In this document: piece after piece, positions 6,169 to 49,838 of the stretch
How the letters are laid out: each line of letters starts with the position of its first letter
How positions within the stretch are numbered: the stretch's first letter is position 1
NCBI RefSeq assembly: GCF_988242995.1
Contig: NZ_OZ547043.1
Direction: 5' to 3' (one strand)
DNA: 64,000 nucleotides
The notes under the pieces: generated by a model
Databases searched by the model: none
Told to the model about the DNA's origin: nothing
What the model saw: the letters and a program-made list of their open reading frames with translations, nothing else
Position numbers and translations under genes: made by a program

Positions 6169-6687
6169 TCACAGGCCGATATTGCGGCGGTGTTGCTCCA
6201 GCCGGTCGACGCCGTTCACCTTCTCAATCATGTTGATGGTGTCGATTTCGACCAGCTCCTTACCGTCCATCGTCAGCCGGAAATAGGTGCAGACCACGGA
6301 GATTTTCGACTCGGTGTCTTCTCCCTGTTTGCCCTCGCCGGTGTCGATTTCTTTCTGACGTCCACGCATGACCACCTCGACGGCCACCGTTTCGCCGGTA
6401 TCGTCGCGCTGGTAAGAGCCTGCAAAACGAATCGGTACGGAATCCACACCGGTTGCGGCGTAAAGCTCCCAGATAACCGAATCCGGGAAGCCACCGAGCG
6501 ACCACTCCATTGACAGCGCATCGTCATCAAGGCCGAGGTCTACCGGTGCGCTGCCGTTCATCCCCGCACCGCGATAGTTTTCGAGCTTACGGGTCAGTTT
6601 TGGTAGCGTGACGGACTTCGCGACGCCCTGATAGCTGTAGCCGTTCAGAAAGACGTTCATTAACTTGAGTTTGCGCGGCATTGCCAT
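6169..6687 (-). CDS. FII: Tail tube protein gpFII
   Basis: 172 aa, P2 FII length and position. Confidence 0.9.
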   Translation of the reverse strand: MAMPRKLKLMNVFLNGYSYQGVAKSVTLPKLTRKLENYRGAGMNGSAPVDLGLDDDALSMEWSLGGFPDSVIWELYAATGVDSVPIRFAGSYQRDDTGETVAVEVVMRGRQKEIDTGEGKQGEDTESKISVVCTYFRLTMDGKELVEIDTINMIEKVNGVDRLEQHRRNIGL

Positions 6688-6699
6688 CGGTCAGGCTCC

Positions 6700-7890
6700 T
6701 TAATTGCTGTTAACCGAGGTGACCAGATTTGCCAGGTATTTATCGGTAATACGCTGGCGCAGGGTCAGGTTTTCAAGAGGAGGCACCGGTGTATAGTCGT
6801 AGTCGATATACAGTTTTCCGGCCTTGAGGGTTTCCGCATCGTTGGATTCTTCGCTGAACCAGCAGGTCGCATCCACGATATAGCCGTTTGTTTTCAGCTC
6901 ACGGAATTTGGCATTGATGCCGTCAACGATGTCGCGAATCAGCGTTGCGGTGATGGGCTTGTCCACCGCCCACATGTGCGCCTCAGCCATCGTGTCGGCC
7001 ATCACCTGCGCGGTGCGGGTGTAGTTTTCAAAGAGGAACAGCGGGTCATCAGAGCAGGTACGGTTACCCCAGAATCGGAAACCGTCGCGGCGAATCAGCG
7101 TAGTGACGCCTGACTCGTTAAGCAGGTCAGCATCGGTGCCGGACTCCTGCAAATCCCAGAATACAGATGCGCTGATGCCGGTAACACCGTTTACCCCGAC
7201 GTTGGACAGCGTTTTATGCCAGCCCTGCTCCTGGTCGATTTTAGCGCGCAGACCCAGCGCACGGGCGGTGGCATACGCGGTGGCGGTGGTACTGGTGACC
7301 GTATCCCATGCGAGGAAATCCGGCCAGATGACCATCAGCTCACGCTGGCTGAAATTCTGGCGGTAGGCTTTCACCTCGGAAATGGTCTTACAGCCCCATG
7401 CGCTGATATATCCGAAAGCGCGCAGCTTCTGACAGACGGATGCCAGTGCAACAGCCACCTCTTTGGTATCCAGTCCCGGCACGCCGAGAATACGCGGTTT
7501 AACACCGGTTACCGACTCCGCCGCCAGCAGGGCTTTCAGTCCGGTGTACTGACCGTTTTCGTCGGTGGTGCCGATGATATTGGAAACGGTCTGCGCAAGT
7601 TTCGTTTCCTCGTCATCACCGGTGCCGTCTTCCACGCGCACGACAACGGTGACCGGTTTTGACTGGTCAGCGATGGCCTGCAACGATGCCGCCAGCGTGC
7701 CTTTTTTACCGGCCTTTGCAATTGCGCTCTGCACATTGGTAATCAGCACCGGTTTATTGAGGGGGAAGGTTTCCGCATCCGCATCGCTGGCCGTGCAGAC
7801 CATGCCGACAATGGCAGTGGATACGGTGGAAATGACGCGGGTGCCGTCGTTAATCTCCAGCACCTGCACGCCGTGATGATAGTCACTCAT
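6700..7890 (-). CDS. FI: Contractile tail sheath protein gpFI
   Basis: 396 aa, P2 FI length and position. Confidence 0.9.
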   Translation of the reverse strand: MSDYHHGVQVLEINDGTRVISTVSTAIVGMVCTASDADAETFPLNKPVLITNVQSAIAKAGKKGTLAASLQAIADQSKPVTVVVRVEDGTGDDEETKLAQTVSNIIGTTDENGQYTGLKALLAAESVTGVKPRILGVPGLDTKEVAVALASVCQKLRAFGYISAWGCKTISEVKAYRQNFSQRELMVIWPDFLAWDTVTSTTATAYATARALGLRAKIDQEQGWHKTLSNVGVNGVTGISASVFWDLQESGTDADLLNESGVTTLIRRDGFRFWGNRTCSDDPLFLFENYTRTAQVMADTMAEAHMWAVDKPITATLIRDIVDGINAKFRELKTNGYIVDATCWFSEESNDAETLKAGKLYIDYDYTPVPPLENLTLRQRITDKYLANLVTSVNSN

Positions 7891-8206
7891 CCGTTTAACT
7901 CCGTGGTTAATGGGTGCAACTATTTTCTGTTGTGCAGAGCATGAGACGCTATTTGCCCTGGATGGTCAGTGGATGAAACAACAGATACAGAAAAGGCGGG
8001 CAATTCGCCCGCATTTCCTAATTTGTACTAACCCAGCTTCCAACTGACAATTTACGTAGCCAAAAAGCTATCAAGTCTGGCAGACTGATTTGTACGAGGT
8101 GTGGATAACCATAATTATGTGCATGCTAACATCACGGTGCATGAGTCAATCGGGTCTATGCCAAAGAATTACGCCTTGATTGACCATAGATTGCTTGCCC
8201 TTGAAT

Positions 8207-8235
8207 TTGACCATTCCAATAAAATGAATTATGAT
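8207..8235 (+). promoter_or_regulatory. Near-consensus sigma70 promoter for cargo gene at 8258
   Basis: -35 TTGACC (8207-8212), 17-bp spacer, -10 TATGAT (8230-8235); followed by GGAGG RBS at 8247-8251. Confidence 0.45.
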
Positions 8236-8257
8236 AATCGTCAAATGGAGGTGCACA

Positions 8258-8902
8258 ATGATCAAACACACCGCAGCAGAAAGGGAAACCAACACTTCAG
8301 CTAAGCTGAATGAATACCAGTTGAACCTTCTGAAAAGAATTAACAACCTCGCTATTTCCCTGATGCCTGAATTTGAAGACAAAAACCAGGCAATTAATGC
8401 TATCACGCTGGATGATAGTTCACTGATGCAATTGCTCTACACCGTTCAACTCGAACAGAAGACTCGTGTCAATGACTACGAACTACGTAAAGTGCGCCGT
8501 CGTCGCGAAAATCTGGAACGATTTTATCGTGGGCTTCAGGAGTTAGGCGGTACGCTAAAGGTAAATGACGTGGTCGATATTCTTGGAATCACCCGCCAGG
8601 CGATCAACATTCGCGTTAAGAAGAACAAGCTTTTAGCATTCAAGCAGAACGGTGATTTTATTTTCCCGAAATTTCAGTTCACAGATAACGGGCTGATTCC
8701 CGGCTTTGAAGACGTAATGGCGGCATTTGACGAGAATACCCATCCAATGCTGAGGTTGGGTGTGCTGAAATCACCAATAGAGGTTAATAGCGAAGGCCTG
8801 AAAAAGACGCCGATTCAAATCATGCAGGACGGCGCTAAAAATAGTGAACTTAGTCTGGCTATCCGTGCCGCTAAACAGTTCGGAAATCATGTATCCAGTT
8901 AA
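8258..8902 (+). CDS. Cargo protein with HTH and C-terminal DUF2384-like (Xre/ParS/MbcA antitoxin-like) region plus a ~110-aa N-terminal extension of unknown function
   Basis: 214 aa from ATG 8258 with GGAGG RBS; HTH-like DILGITRQAINIRVKK; C-terminal HPMLRLGVLKSPIEVNSEGLKKTPIQIM resembles the toxin-binding domain of RES-Xre antitoxins; ~40% GC versus ~52% in flanking phage genes. Confidence 0.55.
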   Translation: MIKHTAAERETNTSAKLNEYQLNLLKRINNLAISLMPEFEDKNQAINAITLDDSSLMQLLYTVQLEQKTRVNDYELRKVRRRRENLERFYRGLQELGGTLKVNDVVDILGITRQAINIRVKKNKLLAFKQNGDFIFPKFQFTDNGLIPGFEDVMAAFDENTHPMLRLGVLKSPIEVNSEGLKKTPIQIMQDGAKNSELSLAIRAAKQFGNHVSS

Positions 8903-8913
8903 TTGTTTTAAAA

Positions 8914-8935
8914 AGAGGGGCTAGCCAGCCCCTCT
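8914..8935. terminator. Terminator hairpin shared by the convergent cargo genes
   Basis: Perfect stem agaggggc / gcccctct with 6-nt loop in the 38-bp gap between the two convergent stop codons; flanked by A/T runs. Confidence 0.5.
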
Positions 8936-8940
8936 TTGGT

Positions 8941-9651
8941 TTACATTGGTTCTGGCGTAATTTCGAATCCAAGCAGTTCTTCGAACATCTCTTCACCTGA
9001 CATCGTTCCTTTGTGCCACCCTTTAGGGAAGATACCTTCGTCATTTTCGATGTAACTGGCATAAGGCACCATCCCCTGAGGGGTATCGGTAAAGGCTGGT
9101 GTACTATCCGGTCGTTCCCAAAAGGCATAACAGCGTTTATAGCGTTTATGCCTTGAGGTATAGGCTATCCCGTCATAGTCACGCCCGAAATGTGTATAAA
9201 GATGTTCCATTAGCCATTGAGTAAAAGTGTAATCCTCGTTCTCTAAGCTATCCAAAGGAATATGTAACAACTCACAGAGCGCTACAACATCGATCACTTT
9301 CACTGGCCTCATGACATCCACAGAGCACATATAGTGTTGTGAAAGTACCGATTCAGGATAAGAAATCGTCCCTTCGAGATGGAGCAAACGCCCATAAGCT
9401 TCTGCCGCCGCCGTTAACGCAGAGTCAGAGGCATACCATACCGCCACACATCCCCCTGGGGGGTTGTATCGCCCACATTCATTTTCCTCAATTGGCGCTC
9501 TGAAGTTGATTGCGCTTTCATACAACGCCCTTTGATGACGCTTCAAAAGACCAGAGCCTGGTTGAATGTCAATCGCCGGAATACGTCCAGATTTATTTTT
9601 TGCAGCAATTCCTTGTGCAACAATATTTTTTTCAAATGTCCATTTGGTCAT
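8941..9651 (-). CDS. RES-domain protein (predicted NAD+-targeting toxin-like effector)
   Basis: 236 aa from ATG 9651 with AAGGAG RBS; motif ECGRYNPPGGCVAVWYASDSALTAAAEAY resembles the RES-domain core (GGRWNPP...YLADS...E in MbcT/ParT-type toxins); candidate Ser in GIAYTSRH; low GC. Confidence 0.6.
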   Translation of the reverse strand: MTKWTFEKNIVAQGIAAKNKSGRIPAIDIQPGSGLLKRHQRALYESAINFRAPIEENECGRYNPPGGCVAVWYASDSALTAAAEAYGRLLHLEGTISYPESVLSQHYMCSVDVMRPVKVIDVVALCELLHIPLDSLENEDYTFTQWLMEHLYTHFGRDYDGIAYTSRHKRYKRCYAFWERPDSTPAFTDTPQGMVPYASYIENDEGIFPKGWHKGTMSGEEMFEELLGFEITPEPM

Positions 9652-10345
9652 TTTTACTACTCCTTCTATAAACAGATTAAGCCATAGGCTCCTCTCCATA
9701 TTGATTGAAAATAATCCCTACCGTGCTTGCCCGGCAGGGGGTATGAGAACATGTGTATCTCAATCTCGATTATACCAAGCAAATTTTCTATTTTTCGGAA
9801 ATTTAGAGAGTTTTTTTAATGCTTCGCATGCCTTCTCGATGTATTGATGGGGCTGAAAAGAAGAAATAACGCAGGAAGTTTTACGGAAAGGAGAACTATA
9901 AAGATTTTTTTCAAGTGAATTAGAAATAAGAACTTCGCAGGATACTGCATTTTTAGTGAAGATGGGTTGAGTTTCTCAGCAAGAGTCCCGCGAGAGCCGT
10001 ATTGACAGCATGCATGACTCGGAGATTATTCCCCATGCAGGATGGTACACCAATGCAAGAGTTGGTTTACGCAAATGATTGGATGATCGCGATTACCGAC
10101 CGTACATTGCGCAAATAACGTTCTGCGTCGATGCTATTAAGATGCCCCGACCACACCGTACGACGGACGCCGTAGTGATCCGAGCTTAAGAATAGATAAT
10201 CTTTTCTCTCCGGATTCACCGTTCGCAGTGCGTTTTCCATAGCTGTCGCAAGCACAATACTTCCGCTACAGGCACAGAGCGGACTGTCAGATTAGGTTTT
10301 ACTCTGTGCCATAGATGAGTAATCTCACACCAGATCTAATACGAT

Positions 10346-10924
10346 TTATTGTGGCATTTCAGGCCATTCTATATCCGGAGCATCTTCCGGCTGAACGCGA
10401 TTCAGTAGCACACGGTATTTTTTCCAGTGTGTCAGGCTTAACTTTTCTTCCTCGGTAGCCATATCTAAATCGACAGCATCCTGCAGCGTGGCAATAATTT
10501 CACCTGCATATGCAATCAGCTCTTTCTTCTGAGAGTCAGCCGCTCTGACAAGCGCATCACGCTCTGCATTCTCATCATTCACCCACGCATTTCCGTTCCA
10601 TTTCTGATAATCCCCATCCGGGGAAATGGCTGTCACGTCTGGAGGTAATGCGCCAAGTTCAGAAATATAAATGGCTGCTCCCGTTTTCGTTTCGTAGACA
10701 GTCTTTCCGCGATGATCTTCCATCAACTCCCATTTTATTTCATCTGCATTGAAAACGGCTGCATAACCAGCCGGTATATCAGGCGGCGCAATATCTGTAC
10801 TGTTTGCAGGCAGACCTGTATACGGTGGAATATACGCGTCACTTTCCCCAATAAATTCATTGGTTCCATCAAGTAAATTAAATACGCGGATAGTTTGTGC
10901 TTCTGCACTCATTCTGAAAGCCAT
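10346..10924 (-). CDS. G: Tail fiber assembly protein gpG
   Basis: 192 aa, directly downstream of H with overlapping stop/start, P2 G position. Confidence 0.85.
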
Positions 10925-13542
10925 TATGCAAGCCTCACAATATAGTTAAATGCGATGTTTTTTACGGTATTTTCTGTATTACCTGTAGCATTAACGGTAA
11001 TAGAGTGCCCGTGTGAGCCAATAGCAACCGTGTGTGAATGTGCACCAATACCAACAGTATGGTTATGTGCTCCAATGTCGACTGTATGTGCATGATTGCC
11101 TGATGAACTTGTAGTCGTAGCACCTTTATCACTTCGCGGAACACCATAATCTGCACCGCCTGATTGCACGCTCACAGCAAAACCGACGGTATGTGTATGA
11201 TTGCCAGAAGTATTGGTTGATTTTGTGCCGTGGTTAAACGTACTGACTGTTTTTGTCCCGTAATCAAATGAACTGGTTGTTTTCGTTCCCAAATCCGTAT
11301 TTGACGCACTGGCGCTGTGAGTATGCGATTTAATCCCGTCCTGTTCCTGTGACAATACGGCACGCCCACTGGCAGGTTTGCCCTTGATTGTCCAGCCGCG
11401 CATATCAGGAATAACACCTGAAGGATAGGCAACAGCCAGTTTCGGATATGCAGCCTTATCAAACGTCTGCCCCTGCATAATTGCATAGCCCGCAGGTGGT
11501 GTATCTGATGGCCACGGCAACGGAACACCTGGCGGAAACGCTTCAATATCTTTCGTCCCGTCAAACGTTACGCCATTAATCGCCCTTGCCGTTTTCAGCT
11601 TTGTAGCTGTAGCCGCATTGCCGGACAGTTCGCCTGAAAGACCGGCGCTGAAGGTTTGTTTCGCCGCCCATGTCTGAGCTTCGTCGATAATTGGCACACG
11701 TCTTGTCGTGATCGTGCGGCTTCCCGGATTTCCTGAAATACGCACCATAAAAAAGCGGTAGTTCGCTTTACTTACAGTGCTGCGCCATACATGCATTGAG
11801 CGCCCAGTACCGGAATCATCACTCGGACCAACTGCGATGTTTATCAGGTTGCCATCAATGACGCCCCAGTCCATACCGTCGGGAATATTGGTCATGTTAT
11901 CAAGCCGAACGGTTATCAGACTGCCCGGCACAAAGTCGTGGGTCTGCCAGTCCAGGCTGGTGAGTTTTGCCACTGCACCGCCGATACCCAGATTCAGGGG
12001 AAGTGAATACGAGGTGTAGACTTCCCGCCATTCGCTCCACGAGCTGCCGGTATAGACGCGCTCAAACGTGCGACCTTTAAGGGTTGCACCTGTTCCGGCA
12101 GTTGTATAACGCTGCCATACGTTAACACCATCAAAGCGCCTCAACACTTCCAGAATACCGAGGACTGTCACGCCGTTTCCGTCCAGTATTGGACCGTTGG
12201 TCGCTTTACCTGTAACGCTGTAAATACCTGGTGAAGTCACATCATTCAAATCCCCGTCGTAATAACGACTCTCTGACTGATGACCGACTCTTAACCACGG
12301 TTCCCACTGCGGATTTGATGCATCCCAGCTTGCCGCAAGGCAGCGGACATACATATTTCCACGGCGAGTGGTATAACGTTGCGTTCTTCCATAATTCCCG
12401 CCTTCGAGGATCTCAAGCGTCCCCTGAGCAAAGCCGCCTTCCTCTGGATAATTGCGTTCATATGAAGCTATAGCCGAGCTACTGTTACGCCATAAACCAA
12501 GATGTTCGGCGGCTCCAAGCGTATTCAGGTCTATAGTCGTACTCAAAGGGCGGGTAGCTGATTGAGTGTGACGCCATACGCCCCATGGACCATCAGTACC
12601 ATTCCACTGATTGGCGAGTTTACGCATGTATACATTGCCGTCTCTCGTGATAAAGCGTTGCGTGCCTGCAAAATTGCCGGCAGCAAAAACCTCAAGCACA
12701 CCGACAGCATTATCTTCCGGGAAATTTTTCTCCAGTGTTGCGTTAGTTGAGGTAGCTTTAGACCAGATCCCCAGATAAGCCTTAACGGGACCAAATGTAT
12801 TCAGATCAGCATCAACCGGCATTTCGCCGTTGTTTTTCATAAACGTCAGGCTGGTAACGCCAACATTGTCCAGAAAAGCGTCCTTATCTGGAATATCGCC
12901 ACCGTTCTGGTCTTTCTGCAGACGTTTCTCAGCATTGTCATAGGCTGCTTTTACTGCCTTTGGCGTTGCCGCCAGCTTTTCACTGGTGCTGTTTGTTGCA
13001 CTGCTTAACTGAGTAAAACCTTTTTCTGTCAGCGTGGCGTCAGGATGGCGGCGGGACTGCTCATGCTCTGCGATTTTGTCATCGACGTAATCCTGCGTCG
13101 CCATCACCGTGCTGGCATCAATACTCAGCTCAACGGACGCCACGTTGCTGAGAATAATAACCATGCGGCAGGTCTGCGCACGTCCGGAGCCTTCAGCCAG
13201 TTCTGGCTTATAGCTTTCTGCCATGTTGGATACCGCAATCAGTGTTCCGGCATCGTCATACAGACCAAGCTCACGCATCCAGAAGCCGCCCACTTCGGGC
13301 GGTACAACCAGTTCAGCCACGATATAGTTTTTATTCTTGTTATCCACGCTGACTTTATTCAGAGCGTGACGCCAGACCTCATGCACCAGTTTCGTCTGAC
13401 CGGCATCCGGCACCGGCAATTTGCCATTACCGTCACCCACGGCCATTGCAGACAGGTTTACTTTTTTCCCGCCGGGGACAGTGGCGGCTGCCAGCTTTGC
13501 GGCTCCGGCAGTAGTGATAACGGTTTTAAATTTCGTGCTCAT
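10924..13542 (-). CDS. H: Tail fiber protein gpH (long variant with His-rich C-terminal repeats)
   Basis: 872 aa; N-terminus P2 H-like; C-terminal region has repeated HxH motifs ([34 protein letters not shown]). Confidence 0.85.
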
Positions 13543-49616: not shown

Positions 49617-49745
49617 AGTTTGCTCCTGCCATAACGTTAAGAAGCAATGACCTGGTGGTCCGTGACTTCCCTACGCTGGCATTATCCAGATCAGGTGATA
49701 CGGGTATTTCTCAGCCTTCACGCAGAAGGGCACCCCGAGTCGTTT
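49617..49745 (-). promoter_or_regulatory. TPP (thi-box) riboswitch in the thiMD leader
   Basis: Minus-strand sequence actcggggtgcccttctgcgtgaaggctgagaaatacccgtatcacctgatctggataatgccagcgtagggaa... matches the remembered E. coli thiM aptamer (CUGAGA thi-box present). Confidence 0.8.
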
Positions 49746-49838
49746 GGTTGCGATGATAAATCGCAGAGGAGGATGGTAATGTCCAGCGCACGCGTTGTAA
49801 ACGAGGAAAAACCGCAGTTTTACAATCGCGTTAATAAA

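Follow-up and report, generated by a model that had tools for sequence, protein, structure and literature searches.

Gene content and composition of the interval

The locus lies in a 64,000-nt stretch of DNA (the window, in whose coordinates all positions are given), in which FII, FI, cargo, G, and H follow one another in the order of P2, where fun(Z) is located between G and FI. Homology to the P2-EC30 backbone covers 7861-8098 and 10255-10369, which sets the limits of the cargo. The cargo cassette comprises a RES-domain gene (PF08808, E-value 1.2e-12; PGAP name "RES family NAD+ phosphorylase"), encoding a putative toxin, and the gene of a convergent 214-aa DNA-binding protein (DBP). Pfam, NCBIfam, and PADLOC scans covered RES, DBP, and a 62-aa open reading frame (ORF) of the interval, and the RES domain was the only match. 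Hence, DBP remained without a match in these scans, with no Xre or DUF2384 domain detectable; one DBP homologue gave a faint match to HTH_17. PDB sequence searches with RES and DBP returned no match. DBP was convergent to RES at every locus examined, and RES was without a co-transcribed antitoxin. The RES start codon (ATG 9651-9649; 236 aa) is identical to the PGAP call in a nearly identical prophage. Lysogens that carry this prophage include E. coli SA186, G749, and AR_0089, with 99.4% identity over the interval. An N-terminal extension from ATG 9699 was considered and rejected, as its frame is broken by a 1-nt indel in distant homologues and the strong Shine-Dalgarno sequence stands before ATG 9651 instead.

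Between this start codon and the stop codon of G (10346-10348), the interval 9652-10345 is poor in ORFs. The largest are the 62-aa ORF, a 44-aa ORF (9816-9950, minus strand), and a 93-aa ORF (9566-9847, plus strand) antisense to the start of RES; none of the three stays open among the relatives compared. The GC content is 37.5-38.5% across 9600-9999 and 47.5-50% across 10000-10300. The initial annotation had recorded the ORF-poor interval with the 62-aa ORF, this GC contrast, and a 9-bp inverted repeat downstream of G, and these sequence features are real apart from small coordinate errors. Its premise that phage genomes are tightly packed fails at this locus, as P2 itself has a 400-nt non-coding gap after G. 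Scanning of 7800-10500 with Rfam 15 at E ≤ 1 yielded no family in the interval and none in the RES leader; the sole match in the scanned region was IS009, partial and sub-threshold, inside gene G.

The interval of about 700 bp is a mosaic of four pieces with separate histories rather than one feature: the RES leader with its promoter, an AT-rich stretch, the end of an IS66-family element (the stub), and a repeat of the P2 backbone. Their features are listed in Table 1, and the composition and origin of each piece are shown by the comparisons below.

Table 1. Positions of the features in the interval between RES and G and at the opposite cassette border
Feature	Position	Strand	Remarks
Shine-Dalgarno sequence of RES, AAGGAG	9660-9665	minus	8 nt upstream of ATG 9651; read from the sequence, conserved in alignments
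28-nt leader block, ATGGAGAGGAGCCTATGGCTTAATCTGT	9672-9699	minus	holds the palindrome AGCC-TAT-GGCT and the mini-ORF
2-codon mini-ORF, ATG-GCT-TAA	9677-9685	minus	inside the 28-nt block
U-rich run, AUUAUUUUCA	9706-9715	minus	directly after stem-loop 2; intrinsic-terminator-like
Leader stem-loop 2, CCCUGCCG-GGCAAGCA-CGGUAGGG	9716-9739	minus	flagged by terminator scan
Leader stem-loop 1, GAGAU...UCUC	9745-9761	minus	predicted 5' end of the RES mRNA; in the minimum-free-energy fold
Extended -10 element of RES, TGGTATAAT	9769-9777	minus	predicted +1 at ~9761-9762
AT-rich non-coding DNA	9778-9978	none	part of the cassette, upstream of the RES promoter
IS66-family right (3') end remnant	9979-10254	minus	terminal inverted repeat and last ~76 transposase codons
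IS66 terminal inverted repeat, GCAAGAGTCCCGCGAGAGCCGTATTGACAG	~9979-10012	minus	aligns with GTAAGCGTGTAGTGAGAACCGTATTGACAG of L006
Ancestral transposase stop	10026-10028	minus	end of the IS66 transposase remnant
62-aa ORF, GTG start	10067-10255	minus	in-frame part of the decayed IS66 transposase gene
"Left inverted repeat" of the Z/fun hot spot	10255-10345	minus	P2 backbone; directly after the G stop
Palindrome GTCCGCT-N10-AGCGGA	10260-10284		overlaps the 9-bp hairpin
9-bp hairpin, GGCACAGAG / CTCTGTGCC	10271-10279 / 10302-10310		exact inverted repeat, inside the left repeat
Degenerate inverted partner	8076-8108	plus	FI side of the cargo; outside the interval, delimits the cassette

Origin of the IS66 stub, the AT-rich stretch, and the boundary repeats

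The DNA of the stub matches the 3' end of an annotated IS66 transposase gene together with its terminal repeat in Pantoea dispersa, and BLASTX returned 58% identity to residues 438-492 of a 512-residue IS66 transposase (E-value 4e-13). Aligned to these residues, residues 7-61 of the 62-aa ORF show a 5-residue deletion, and the true transposase C-terminus (VNQLLHWCTILHGE, then stop) continues in another frame, i.e., a frameshift precedes the natural stop. TBLASTN matched 105 plasmid records, with IS66 family transposase as the annotation wherever the matches listed carry one. The terminal repeat follows the transposase stop at the expected distance and in the order found in IS66; in the window it is degenerate (GCAAGAG vs. 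GTAAGCG), and sister copies retain GTAAGCGTC. A complete IS66 is not present: homology to the DDE transposase (TnpC) is limited to the C-terminus, nothing was found upstream of residue ~431-437, and the stub abuts the P2 repeat at 10254/10255. The truncation at residue ~437 beside the same repeat recurs in cassette copies in Pantoea, Pluralibacter, Proteus, and metagenome contigs, and L029 retains an undecayed transposase remnant (residues 437-512, frame intact). Since cassette copies on plasmids and in other genomes share the truncation point, the IS66 scar arrived with the cassette. Among sister cassettes, those of Pantoea and Pluralibacter have internal deletions in the 62-aa region, that of Klebsiella retains ~30 nt of it, and that of Rahnella lacks it, whereas RES and DBP are intact. 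The 62-aa ORF is decayed IS66 pseudogene debris, and the stub is a scar, i.e., a transposition-incompetent fragment.

Two other origins were weighed for the GC-richer 3' half. The initial annotation had taken it for a decayed coding remnant, possibly of an original Z/fun-type phage gene displaced by the cassette. The first part stands, as decayed coding sequence with a GC content above that of the rest of the interval does lie in the Z/fun slot. However, when Fun(Z) and nine further cargo proteins of the Z region were searched against the interval by TBLASTN, no meaningful match resulted; the best (P24A7b, E-value 0.018 against a single 694-nt subject) was a 41-residue stretch not related to IS66. 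With transposase matches in the plasmid records, an IS66-type terminal repeat next to them, and the same stub travelling with the cassette outside P2 phages, a displaced Z/fun-type gene has next to no probability. Hardly more credible is a functional small protein, be it a domesticated IS66 C-terminal domain or an accessory factor of the cassette. The ORF does have a GTG start, and one database entry (P0020) joins an IS66 C-terminal domain to RES in a single called protein, but the 62-aa piece has no Pfam or NCBIfam match above threshold, carries the deletion and frameshift relative to intact transposases, and is deleted, shrunk, or absent in sister cassettes with intact RES and DBP; moreover, the GTG is situated at the repeat junction and has no evident Shine-Dalgarno sequence ahead of it. 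Decayed IS66 debris is the reading kept for the stub.

In the AT-rich stretch, the core (9811-9965) is 74-83% identical in most close cassette copies and 61% identical in E. coli A28, compared to 88-92% for the RES coding sequence in close copies, and is unalignable in distant homologues (38-43%). The 44-aa ORF in this stretch, with a possible hydrophobic peptide, was rejected as a gene: relatives lack its start codon, and close relatives differ by indels of 1, 4, and 5 nt. The 93-aa antisense ORF was likewise rejected, its length varying from 49 to 144 codons in close relatives and the ORF being absent in distant ones.

The last piece is 85% identical to the annotated P2-EC30 left inverted repeat (AJ512676, repeat_region 3-115) and is kept in seven P2-like phages with different cargo, the homology ending sharply at ~10255-10257. 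About 80 other E. coli genomes match the interval at 10255-10345 only; a description of the interval as spacer conserved in prophages without the cassette hence applies to its last ~91 nt alone. Perfect 9-bp inverted repeats (3-40-nt loops) occur 41 times in the window, i.e., ~1 per 1.5 kb, so that a single one in 700 bp is unremarkable by itself; the one present here is near-invariant in the seven P2-like phages, with one compensatory change from G-C to A-T (P24A7b). Aligning the FI side with the right repeat of P2-EC30 revealed the inverted partner, which is easier to recognise in P2-EC30 itself and in nine further contexts of the cassette, where it borders the opposite side of the cassette; the DBP-side flanks of these nine copies carry TGACAGGCAGCTTTGAGCGAAGAGCGGACAT immediately before CCATAATTGTG. 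Since junctions are fixed and unrelated replicons carry this cargo between the same repeats, the boundary repeats are putative site-specific recombination sites. A high-copy MITE was rejected for the boundary element, which is present in 1-4 copies per E. coli genome. Its resemblance to the ERIC consensus extends over ~11 nt only, and a 101-aa "transposase" beside the element in E. coli ATCC 8739 had no Pfam match.

The cassette with the same upstream DNA was also found on an island of E. coli A28, on plasmids of Pantoea, Klebsiella, and Rahnella, in Pluralibacter and Proteus, and on metagenome contigs. The combination of RES gene, convergent DBP, and IS66 stub was not among the cargoes of the P2 loci compared.

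Predicted promoter and leader of the RES gene

The element TGGTATAAT conforms to the sigma-70 extended -10 pattern (TGnTATAAT at a suitable distance upstream of a gene) and is the predicted RES promoter, from which transcription would start at the +1 given in Table 1. The initial annotation had noticed it on the correct strand, although 3 nt off (9766-9774), and had implied a RES 5' UTR of ~110 nt, which agrees with the leader length obtained here. No good -35 element lies upstream, which is acceptable in the extended -10 promoter class. The motif alone is not significant, since TGNTATAAT has one perfect occurrence in the 64-kb window and shuffles give 1.8 on average; its weight derives from its position (~118 nt upstream of RES) and strand and from its conservation, being invariant in all close cassette copies and still recognisable in distant homologues (GGATATAAT, GGTGTAAT, GGTATAAT, GGTACAAT).

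The leader (~110 nt) contains two stem-loops, one at the 5' end and one that resembles a terminator and is followed by a U run (9706-9739 with the run), and a 28-nt block. RES homologues down to 55% protein identity share this architecture and show base changes that compensate each other, and the two-hairpin layout was present in 13 homologues, six of which were found by protein similarity only. The minimum-free-energy fold of the leader has a z-score of -2.2. A 5'-proximal hairpin was predicted at the equivalent place in 13/13 homologues folded, its stems differing in distant homologues (e.g., GACCC-UCGC-GGGUC and AGGC-AUACA-GCCU). Stem-loop 2 combines a GC-rich stem-loop with an immediate U tract, as intrinsic terminators do (8-bp stem, -14.9 kcal/mol, 6 U in the next 10 nt). 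Among 17 distinct sequences, 5 of its 8 pairs showed two-sided changes that preserve pairing, a covariation score reached by none of 500 shuffles. In the close clade, the hairpin has -10 to -17 kcal/mol and 5-9 U in the next 10 nt, and in distant clades it is weaker (-5.5 to -10.6 kcal/mol, 4-5 U of 10); because the U run is weak in the most distant clades, termination may not be the conserved role of stem-loop 2. Neither an alternative antiterminator structure nor a sensing element that would modulate termination was apparent in the minimum-free-energy or consensus folds.

Conservation of the 28-nt block was assessed on sequences found by BLAST or protein search, as eleven of the leader sequences added had been retrieved by a block-derived pattern and inflate the invariance of the block in alignment A8. 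In close copies it is 100% identical, and in homologues from the protein search it is 79-89% identical, compared to 62-76% for the RES coding DNA. In L040, the palindrome has changed symmetrically from AGCC..GGCT to TGCC..GGCA. The Met-Ala-stop of the mini-ORF is retained in most homologues (GCT/GCC/GCA; TAA/TGA) and lost in L038. Four homologues (L039, L041, L043, and L044) lack the block or have a degenerate one, so that it is not essential to RES. These sequence comparisons show the structural conservation of the leader, and promoter and long leader plausibly control the putative toxin gene.

Two further readings concern the transcripts of the interval. Instead of marking a recombination site, the hairpin at 10271-10310 could form the 3' end or terminator of the late V-operon mRNA past G. 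It stands ~35 nt past the G stop, forms a stem of 10-14 pairs in the RNA fold, and shows the compensatory change in P24A7b, and the element also directly follows the stop codons of unrelated genes (nanQ, an IS66 transposase). However, no U run follows the hairpin on either strand, the fold is not unusual (z = -1.5), and the annotated V-operon terminator in P2 lies 365 nt downstream of G. Furthermore, an inverted partial copy on the opposite side of the cargo could not end the same transcript, and cargo junctions at a fixed nucleotide beside the hairpin in seven phages are as for a recombination boundary, so that a terminator role is unlikely. The other reading, to which we give somewhat less credence still, is that the promoter at 9769-9777 mainly yields a trans-acting RNA of ~50-55 nt that ends at stem-loop 2 and serves as RNA antitoxin or regulator. 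A 5' stem-loop, short single-stranded spacer, GC-rich terminator hairpin, and U tail are the typical anatomy of an enterobacterial small RNA, and RES has no antitoxin in its own transcript; against this stand the lack of an Rfam match, the weak U tail in distant clades, and the free divergence of the hairpin region (30-59% identity), so that a single-stranded seed is not conserved. Moreover, the 28-nt block, in which conservation is highest, comes after the putative terminator and would hence be part of the read-through mRNA.

Related systems, proposed mechanism, and implications

The Z/fun locus is the second defence hot spot of P2-like phages (PMC9519451), and inverted repeats around fun, in phages and bacteria, are mentioned in PMC8987985, which cites Nilsson 2004. 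As represented by the annotations of AJ512676-AJ512685, the P2 Z/fun repeats (Nilsson, Karlsson and Haggard-Ljungquist 2004) have the same G-FI position, the same left repeat of ~90 nt, and likewise a degenerate inverted partner by FI, with cargo shared with plasmids and bacterial chromosomes; the RES/DBP/IS66-stub cargo differs from that of the P2 loci compared, as far as the 2004 listing is reflected in GenBank annotations and the review. Compared to IS66 (tnpA, tnpB, and the DDE transposase tnpC; repeats starting GTAAGCG), C-terminal homology and terminal repeat occur here in correct order and spacing, but only the last ~276 bp are left, without tnpA, tnpB, or the catalytic domain, with a broken frame and a degenerate repeat. 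In the pdif modules of Acinetobacter plasmids, cargo is bracketed by inverted Xer sites. The cassette is likewise a discrete cargo with short inverted palindromic borders, unchanged on different replicons; its repeat (GTCCGCTC-N8-GAGCGGAC) is not dif-like, no recombinase was identified, and exchange is putative here.

In RES-Xre type II systems (MbcTA, ParST; PMC6436930), a RES-domain protein is likewise paired with a helix-turn-helix-type partner, but the partner here has no detectable Xre or DUF2384 domain and is convergent rather than upstream in one operon. Because of this arrangement, the usual autoregulation of RES-Xre operons cannot apply. Attenuators and structured 5' leaders are found in toxin mRNAs, e.g., in the hok and tisB leaders of type I systems. 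The RES leader is similar in being long and structurally conserved from promoter to toxin ORF, and its predicted terminator-like hairpin would limit full-length mRNA; it differs in that neither an antisense RNA nor a pre-terminator leader peptide nor an antiterminator pairing was found, and in that its toxin is a RES protein of the enzyme type; attenuation is putative.

Taken together, we assign a probability of roughly 85% to the following reading: a P2-like prophage has taken up a cargo cassette by horizontal transfer at its Z/fun hot spot, the whole interval forms the edge of this cassette nearest G, with the four-part make-up described above, and the leader works as set out next. The IS66 stub was attached to both repeat and cassette already when the cassette came into P2, and the left repeat forms, with its inverted partner, the borders of the hot spot and of every cassette copy. 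Transcription from the predicted promoter would mostly stop at stem-loop 2, keeping RES output low, and stem-loop 2 may also insulate RES from read-through, e.g., of the P2 late V operon through G. The 28-nt block may set translation through an RNA structure or the mini-ORF; alternatively, its palindrome may be an operator bound by DBP. Whether the leader is an undescribed cis-regulatory RNA common to this RES family, gating a putative toxin whose partner is convergent and not co-transcribed and so replacing the operon-based control of RES-Xre systems, is a more tentative matter, which we rate at somewhat below even odds. In a wider version, recombination at the 8-8-8 palindromes of the flanking inverted repeats would carry the whole module from plasmids to the P2 hot spot and back.

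The initial annotation is hence partly supported overall. For annotation purposes, no new gene is needed in the gap: the label for the 62-aa ORF should be fragment of an IS66 transposase pseudogene, and that for the last 91 nt hot-spot boundary repeat. The IS66 scar and the common flanking repeats show that this P2 cargo came in as a finished module, one that also circulates on Pantoea, Klebsiella, and Rahnella plasmids. It is a concrete example of how phage hot spots and plasmids exchange DNA. The interval is otherwise largely ordinary, and its sole new lead is the conserved, structured RES leader, a testable handle on how a toxin-like NAD+-targeting enzyme may be restrained without a co-transcribed partner.

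Composition of the cargo slot between G and FI

The P2-like prophage in the window lies on the minus strand, and a nearly identical prophage in E. coli SA186 carries the same annotation by PGAP. In the phage P2 record, the non-essential gene fun(Z) is located between G and FI, the annotation of AJ512676 places variable foreign DNA of P2-like phages at the Z locus, and this locus has been described as their second defence hot spot (PMC9519451). Backbone homology between the window and the P2-EC30 'Z-region' record was limited to 7861-8098 and 10255-10369, and the cargo was therefore delimited to about 8099-10254. The interval analysed here, 9652-10345, comprises all DNA from the start of the RES-domain gene to the stop of G; the features are listed in the table.

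Features of the prophage tail region, the cargo and other parts of the window
Feature	Position	Strand	Basis
FII, tail tube gene	6169-6687	minus	gene call
FI, sheath gene	6700-7890	minus	gene call
G, tail-fibre assembly gene	10346-10924	minus	gene call
H, tail-fibre gene	10924-13542	minus	gene call
DBP, 214 aa	8258-8902	plus	PGAP: 'hypothetical protein' in SA186 prophage, 'DNA-binding protein' in other cassette copies
RES-domain protein, 236 aa, convergent with DBP	8941-9651	minus	Pfam PF08808, E 1.2e-12
Hairpin between RES and DBP stop codons	8912-8937		shared
28-nt block ATGGAGAGGAGCCTATGGCTTAATCTGT, downstream of the two hairpins	9672-9699		conservation
Stem-loop 2	9716-9739		predicted RNA fold, -14.9 kcal/mol, then AUUAUUUUCA
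Stem-loop 1	9745-9761		predicted RNA fold
Extended -10 of RES, TGGTATAAT	9769-9777	minus	motif
AT-rich stretch	9778-9978		
IS66-family remnant	9979-10254		similarity searches
P2 boundary repeat	10255-10345		similarity searches
9-bp inverted repeat	10271-10279 / 10302-10310		exact match
Flanking repeat, far side (degenerate)	8076-8108	plus	alignment
Flanking repeat, G side	10257-10290	minus	alignment
IS009 candidate sRNA family, partial, within G	10383-10500	minus	Rfam, sub-threshold
CyaR/RyeE small RNA	1098-1183	plus	Rfam, gathering level
TPP riboswitch	49651-49747	minus	Rfam, gathering level

The initial annotation had flagged the interval as an ORF-poor gap that is anomalous for a phage. The longest minus-strand ORF within it was indeed 62 aa, and the described GC contrast was present (37.5-38.5% in the RES-proximal half, 47.5-50% in the G-proximal part); the argument from anomaly is weak at the Z locus, as in P2 itself G is followed by 400 nt of non-coding DNA. 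Overall the observation was confirmed and its interpretation borne out in part, most of the interval being historical debris and a known boundary repeat.

IS66 remnant and P2 boundary repeat

The G-proximal part had been read as a decayed coding remnant, possibly of a displaced Z/fun gene. A remnant is present, and its origin is an IS66-family transposase. In a distant-mode search the DNA matched, at 68%, the 3' end of an IS66-family transposase gene annotated on a plasmid of Pantoea dispersa, BLASTX aligned the 62-aa ORF with residues 438-492 of the 512-residue transposase (58% identity, E 4e-13, with a 5-residue deletion), and TBLASTN recovered the same transposase relationship in 105 plasmid records. 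The remaining C-terminal residues lie downstream of the ORF in another frame; next comes GCAAGAGTCCCGCGAGAGCCGTATTGACAG at 9979, which corresponds to the terminal inverted repeat GTAAGCGTGTAGTGAGAACCGTATTGACAG of the IS66-family element. Together, the match, the frame-shifted C-terminus and the terminal repeat mark this piece as the ~276-bp dead right end of such an element, with the 62-aa ORF as debris. The suggested Z/fun origin gained no support; neither Fun(Z) nor any of nine further cargo proteins of the Z region had meaningful similarity to the interval.

Residue ~437 is also where the transposase remnant starts in the cassette copies of the Pantoea AJ2b plasmid, Pluralibacter, Proteus and several metagenome contigs; ahead of it stands the same repeat motif, TGTGCC..AGCGGAAGTATT, as at the P2 boundary of the window. 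Residues 437-512 are still in frame in one contig (L029, 74% identity), other copies have an internally deleted stub or just ~30 nt of the terminal repeat, and the stub is gone from the Rahnella copies. The shared start and the differing losses thus mean that one ancestral truncation came first and that the copies then decayed independently; the scar travelled with the cassette. This pattern is expected of unselected DNA and is the opposite of that of a displaced resident phage gene.

IS fragments are commonplace in prophage cargo, and according to a recent preprint the pseudogenes of P2 and P4 elements were mostly detected as small intergenic fragments. The P2-like prophage of E. coli 4/1-1 (L013, 3328-3462) carries an IS3-family fragment without its N-terminus at the G-proximal junction, next to different cargo, and such scars may recur at this border. 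A database protein of 250 aa (P0020), called as an IS66 C-terminal domain (PF13817) fused to a RES domain, is probably an ORF-calling artefact or the product of a deletion joining the stub to RES.

In similarity searches, ~80 E. coli genomes and 94 phage records matched the interval within the boundary repeat only, which corresponds to the annotated 'left inverted repeat' of P2-EC records. In seven aligned P2-like phages that differ in their cargo, ~91 nt from the G stop were conserved, with homology ending within 2-3 nt of one common position. The hairpin arms were nearly invariant, the variants being a compensatory G-C to A-T change in P24A7b and a G-T pair in another prophage. The 9-bp inverted repeat had been reported correctly; repeats of this kind occur about once per 1.5 kb in the window, its RNA fold does not stand out (z = -1.5), no U-tract-like sequence comes after it, and the annotated V-operon terminator of P2 lies 365 nt further along.

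The ~85-nt boundary element is dispersed at low copy number (2635 of 5426 E. coli genomes, at 1-4 places each; 85 plasmid records), and often starts a few nt from the stop codon of an unrelated gene. It lies beside the nanQ stop in E. coli ATCC 8739, beside the stop of a hypothetical gene in pNH25.1, and at the IS66 transposase stop, inside the IS and before its terminal repeat, in K. pneumoniae pINF078-VP. Besides the window copy, the element lies at loci L019 (3001-3086), L021 (3001-3072) and L022 (3001-3071). The match in G to the E. coli family IS009 (38.7 bits vs a gathering threshold of 117) is probably a relic of how that family was defined, from a P2-like prophage remnant.

Distribution and bracketing of the cassette

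Recurrence with DBP/RES copies identifies 9652-9978 as cassette DNA. The pair was found elsewhere at 85-89% DNA identity in many contexts, namely a genomic island of E. coli A28, plasmids of Pantoea agglomerans, Klebsiella pneumoniae and Rahnella aquatilis, genomes of Pluralibacter, Rahnella ecdela and Proteus, and metagenome contigs. Homology upstream of RES stopped at 9782 in E. coli A28; in every other close copy it reached ~9944-9965, and in several it extended into the IS66 terminal repeat. In nine independent contexts, an inverted imperfect copy of the boundary repeat, TGACAGGCAGCTTTGAGCGAAGAGCGGACAT, was located on the far side of the cassette, directly before the cassette-internal CCATAATTGTG, and the window holds a degenerate version. 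Imperfect inverted repeats of ~33 nt thus flank the module in all the contexts examined, i.e., P2 prophage, plasmids and chromosomes (window; flanks of loci L004, L005, L007, L009, L010, L027, L031, L034 and L035). Each flanking repeat holds a palindrome of the type GTCCGCTC-N8-GAGCGGAC, arranged much like the core site of a tyrosine recombinase; no recombinase was identified. The bracketing agrees with a passage of PMC8987985, citing Nilsson et al. 2004, on fun being flanked by inverted repeats in phages and bacteria. The hot spot, the flanking repeats and cargo sharing between plasmids and phages are already known, and we infer that the module entered P2 by recombination at the flanking repeats.

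With just 34 clusters at 90% identity in a set of 5.8 billion proteins, the RES gene family is small. It stems from Enterobacterales wherever the organism is named, and is always paired with a convergent 212-214-aa protein (window; loci L038-L045) for which no Pfam, NCBIfam, PADLOC or PDB match was found. The cassette differs from a classical RES-Xre operon because the partner has no detectable Xre or DUF2384 domain and is convergent. In Proteus alimentorum (L010, 1-2500), ~2.5 kb upstream of the cassette copy contained no ORF of at least 70 aa and no Rfam match. The CyaR match is situated a few kb away from the tail genes of the prophage.

The RES leader and its proposed role

The RES-proximal 126 nt (9652-9777) are the sole part of the interval with evidence of selection. 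The adjoining AT-rich stretch was less conserved than coding DNA (core 9811-9965, 61-83% identical in close copies vs 88-92% for RES), contained frame-breaking indels and was unalignable in distant homologues. The extended -10 initially proposed for RES is present, 3 nt from its first placement; it does not vary among close copies and can still be recognised in distant ones. Perfect TGNTATAAT occurs in the 64-kb window solely as this element; since shuffles expect 1.8 copies, the motif alone is not significant.

RNA from the predicted +1 (~9761) folds into two stem-loops. Across 17 distinct sequences, five of the eight pairs of stem-loop 2 had two-sided changes that retain pairing, its covariation score was 0.175 vs 0.082 in shuffles (0 of 500 as high), and sliding the partner columns lowered pairing from 95% to 31-48%. 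To avoid ascertainment bias, further homologues were fetched purely by protein similarity (55-75% identity). The leader was kept in four of these eight as well as in the more distant K. grimontii and Pantoea sp. A4 (genome scan), and RNA folding gave all six the same two-hairpin layout with unrelated stem sequences. Primary sequence of the two-hairpin region was just 30-59% identical to the window; the 28-nt block was 79-89% identical in leader-keeping homologues vs 62-76% for their RES coding DNA. Within the block are a palindrome, AGCC-TAT-GGCT, for which one symmetric substitution, to TGCC..GGCA, was seen, and a Met-Ala-stop mini-ORF retained in most homologues, not all. It is missing in four homologues and is thus dispensable.

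RES would be transcribed from its own extended -10 promoter; the two genes are not co-transcribed, and the partner is convergent in every locus examined. RES has the orientation of the late V operon ending in G, and a terminator scan of the RES strand found no other canonical terminator between G and RES. Stem-loop 2 and its U run would stop most transcripts, whether from the RES promoter or from upstream read-through, and the block would then decide what becomes of read-through mRNA. It could do so by affecting translation, through an RNA hairpin or the mini-ORF, or at the DNA level as an operator for DBP. A rival reading, with the promoter chiefly producing a short RNA that acts in trans, is less likely: no single-stranded sequence is conserved in the hairpin region, and conservation is highest in the block, beyond the putative terminator.

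No Rfam family matched the RES leader, and as far as these searches show, the conserved leader is undescribed and constitutes a modest lead. Two of the four block-less homologues are chromosomal copies of Kalamiella and Erwinia, located between exbD and an MFS transporter gene (L041, ~2455-2500; L043, ~2330-2365). In place of the block they have a hairpin in which an upstream CUCC-rich arm pairs with the Shine-Dalgarno sequence and sequesters it; such substitutes suggest a common need to restrain RES translation.
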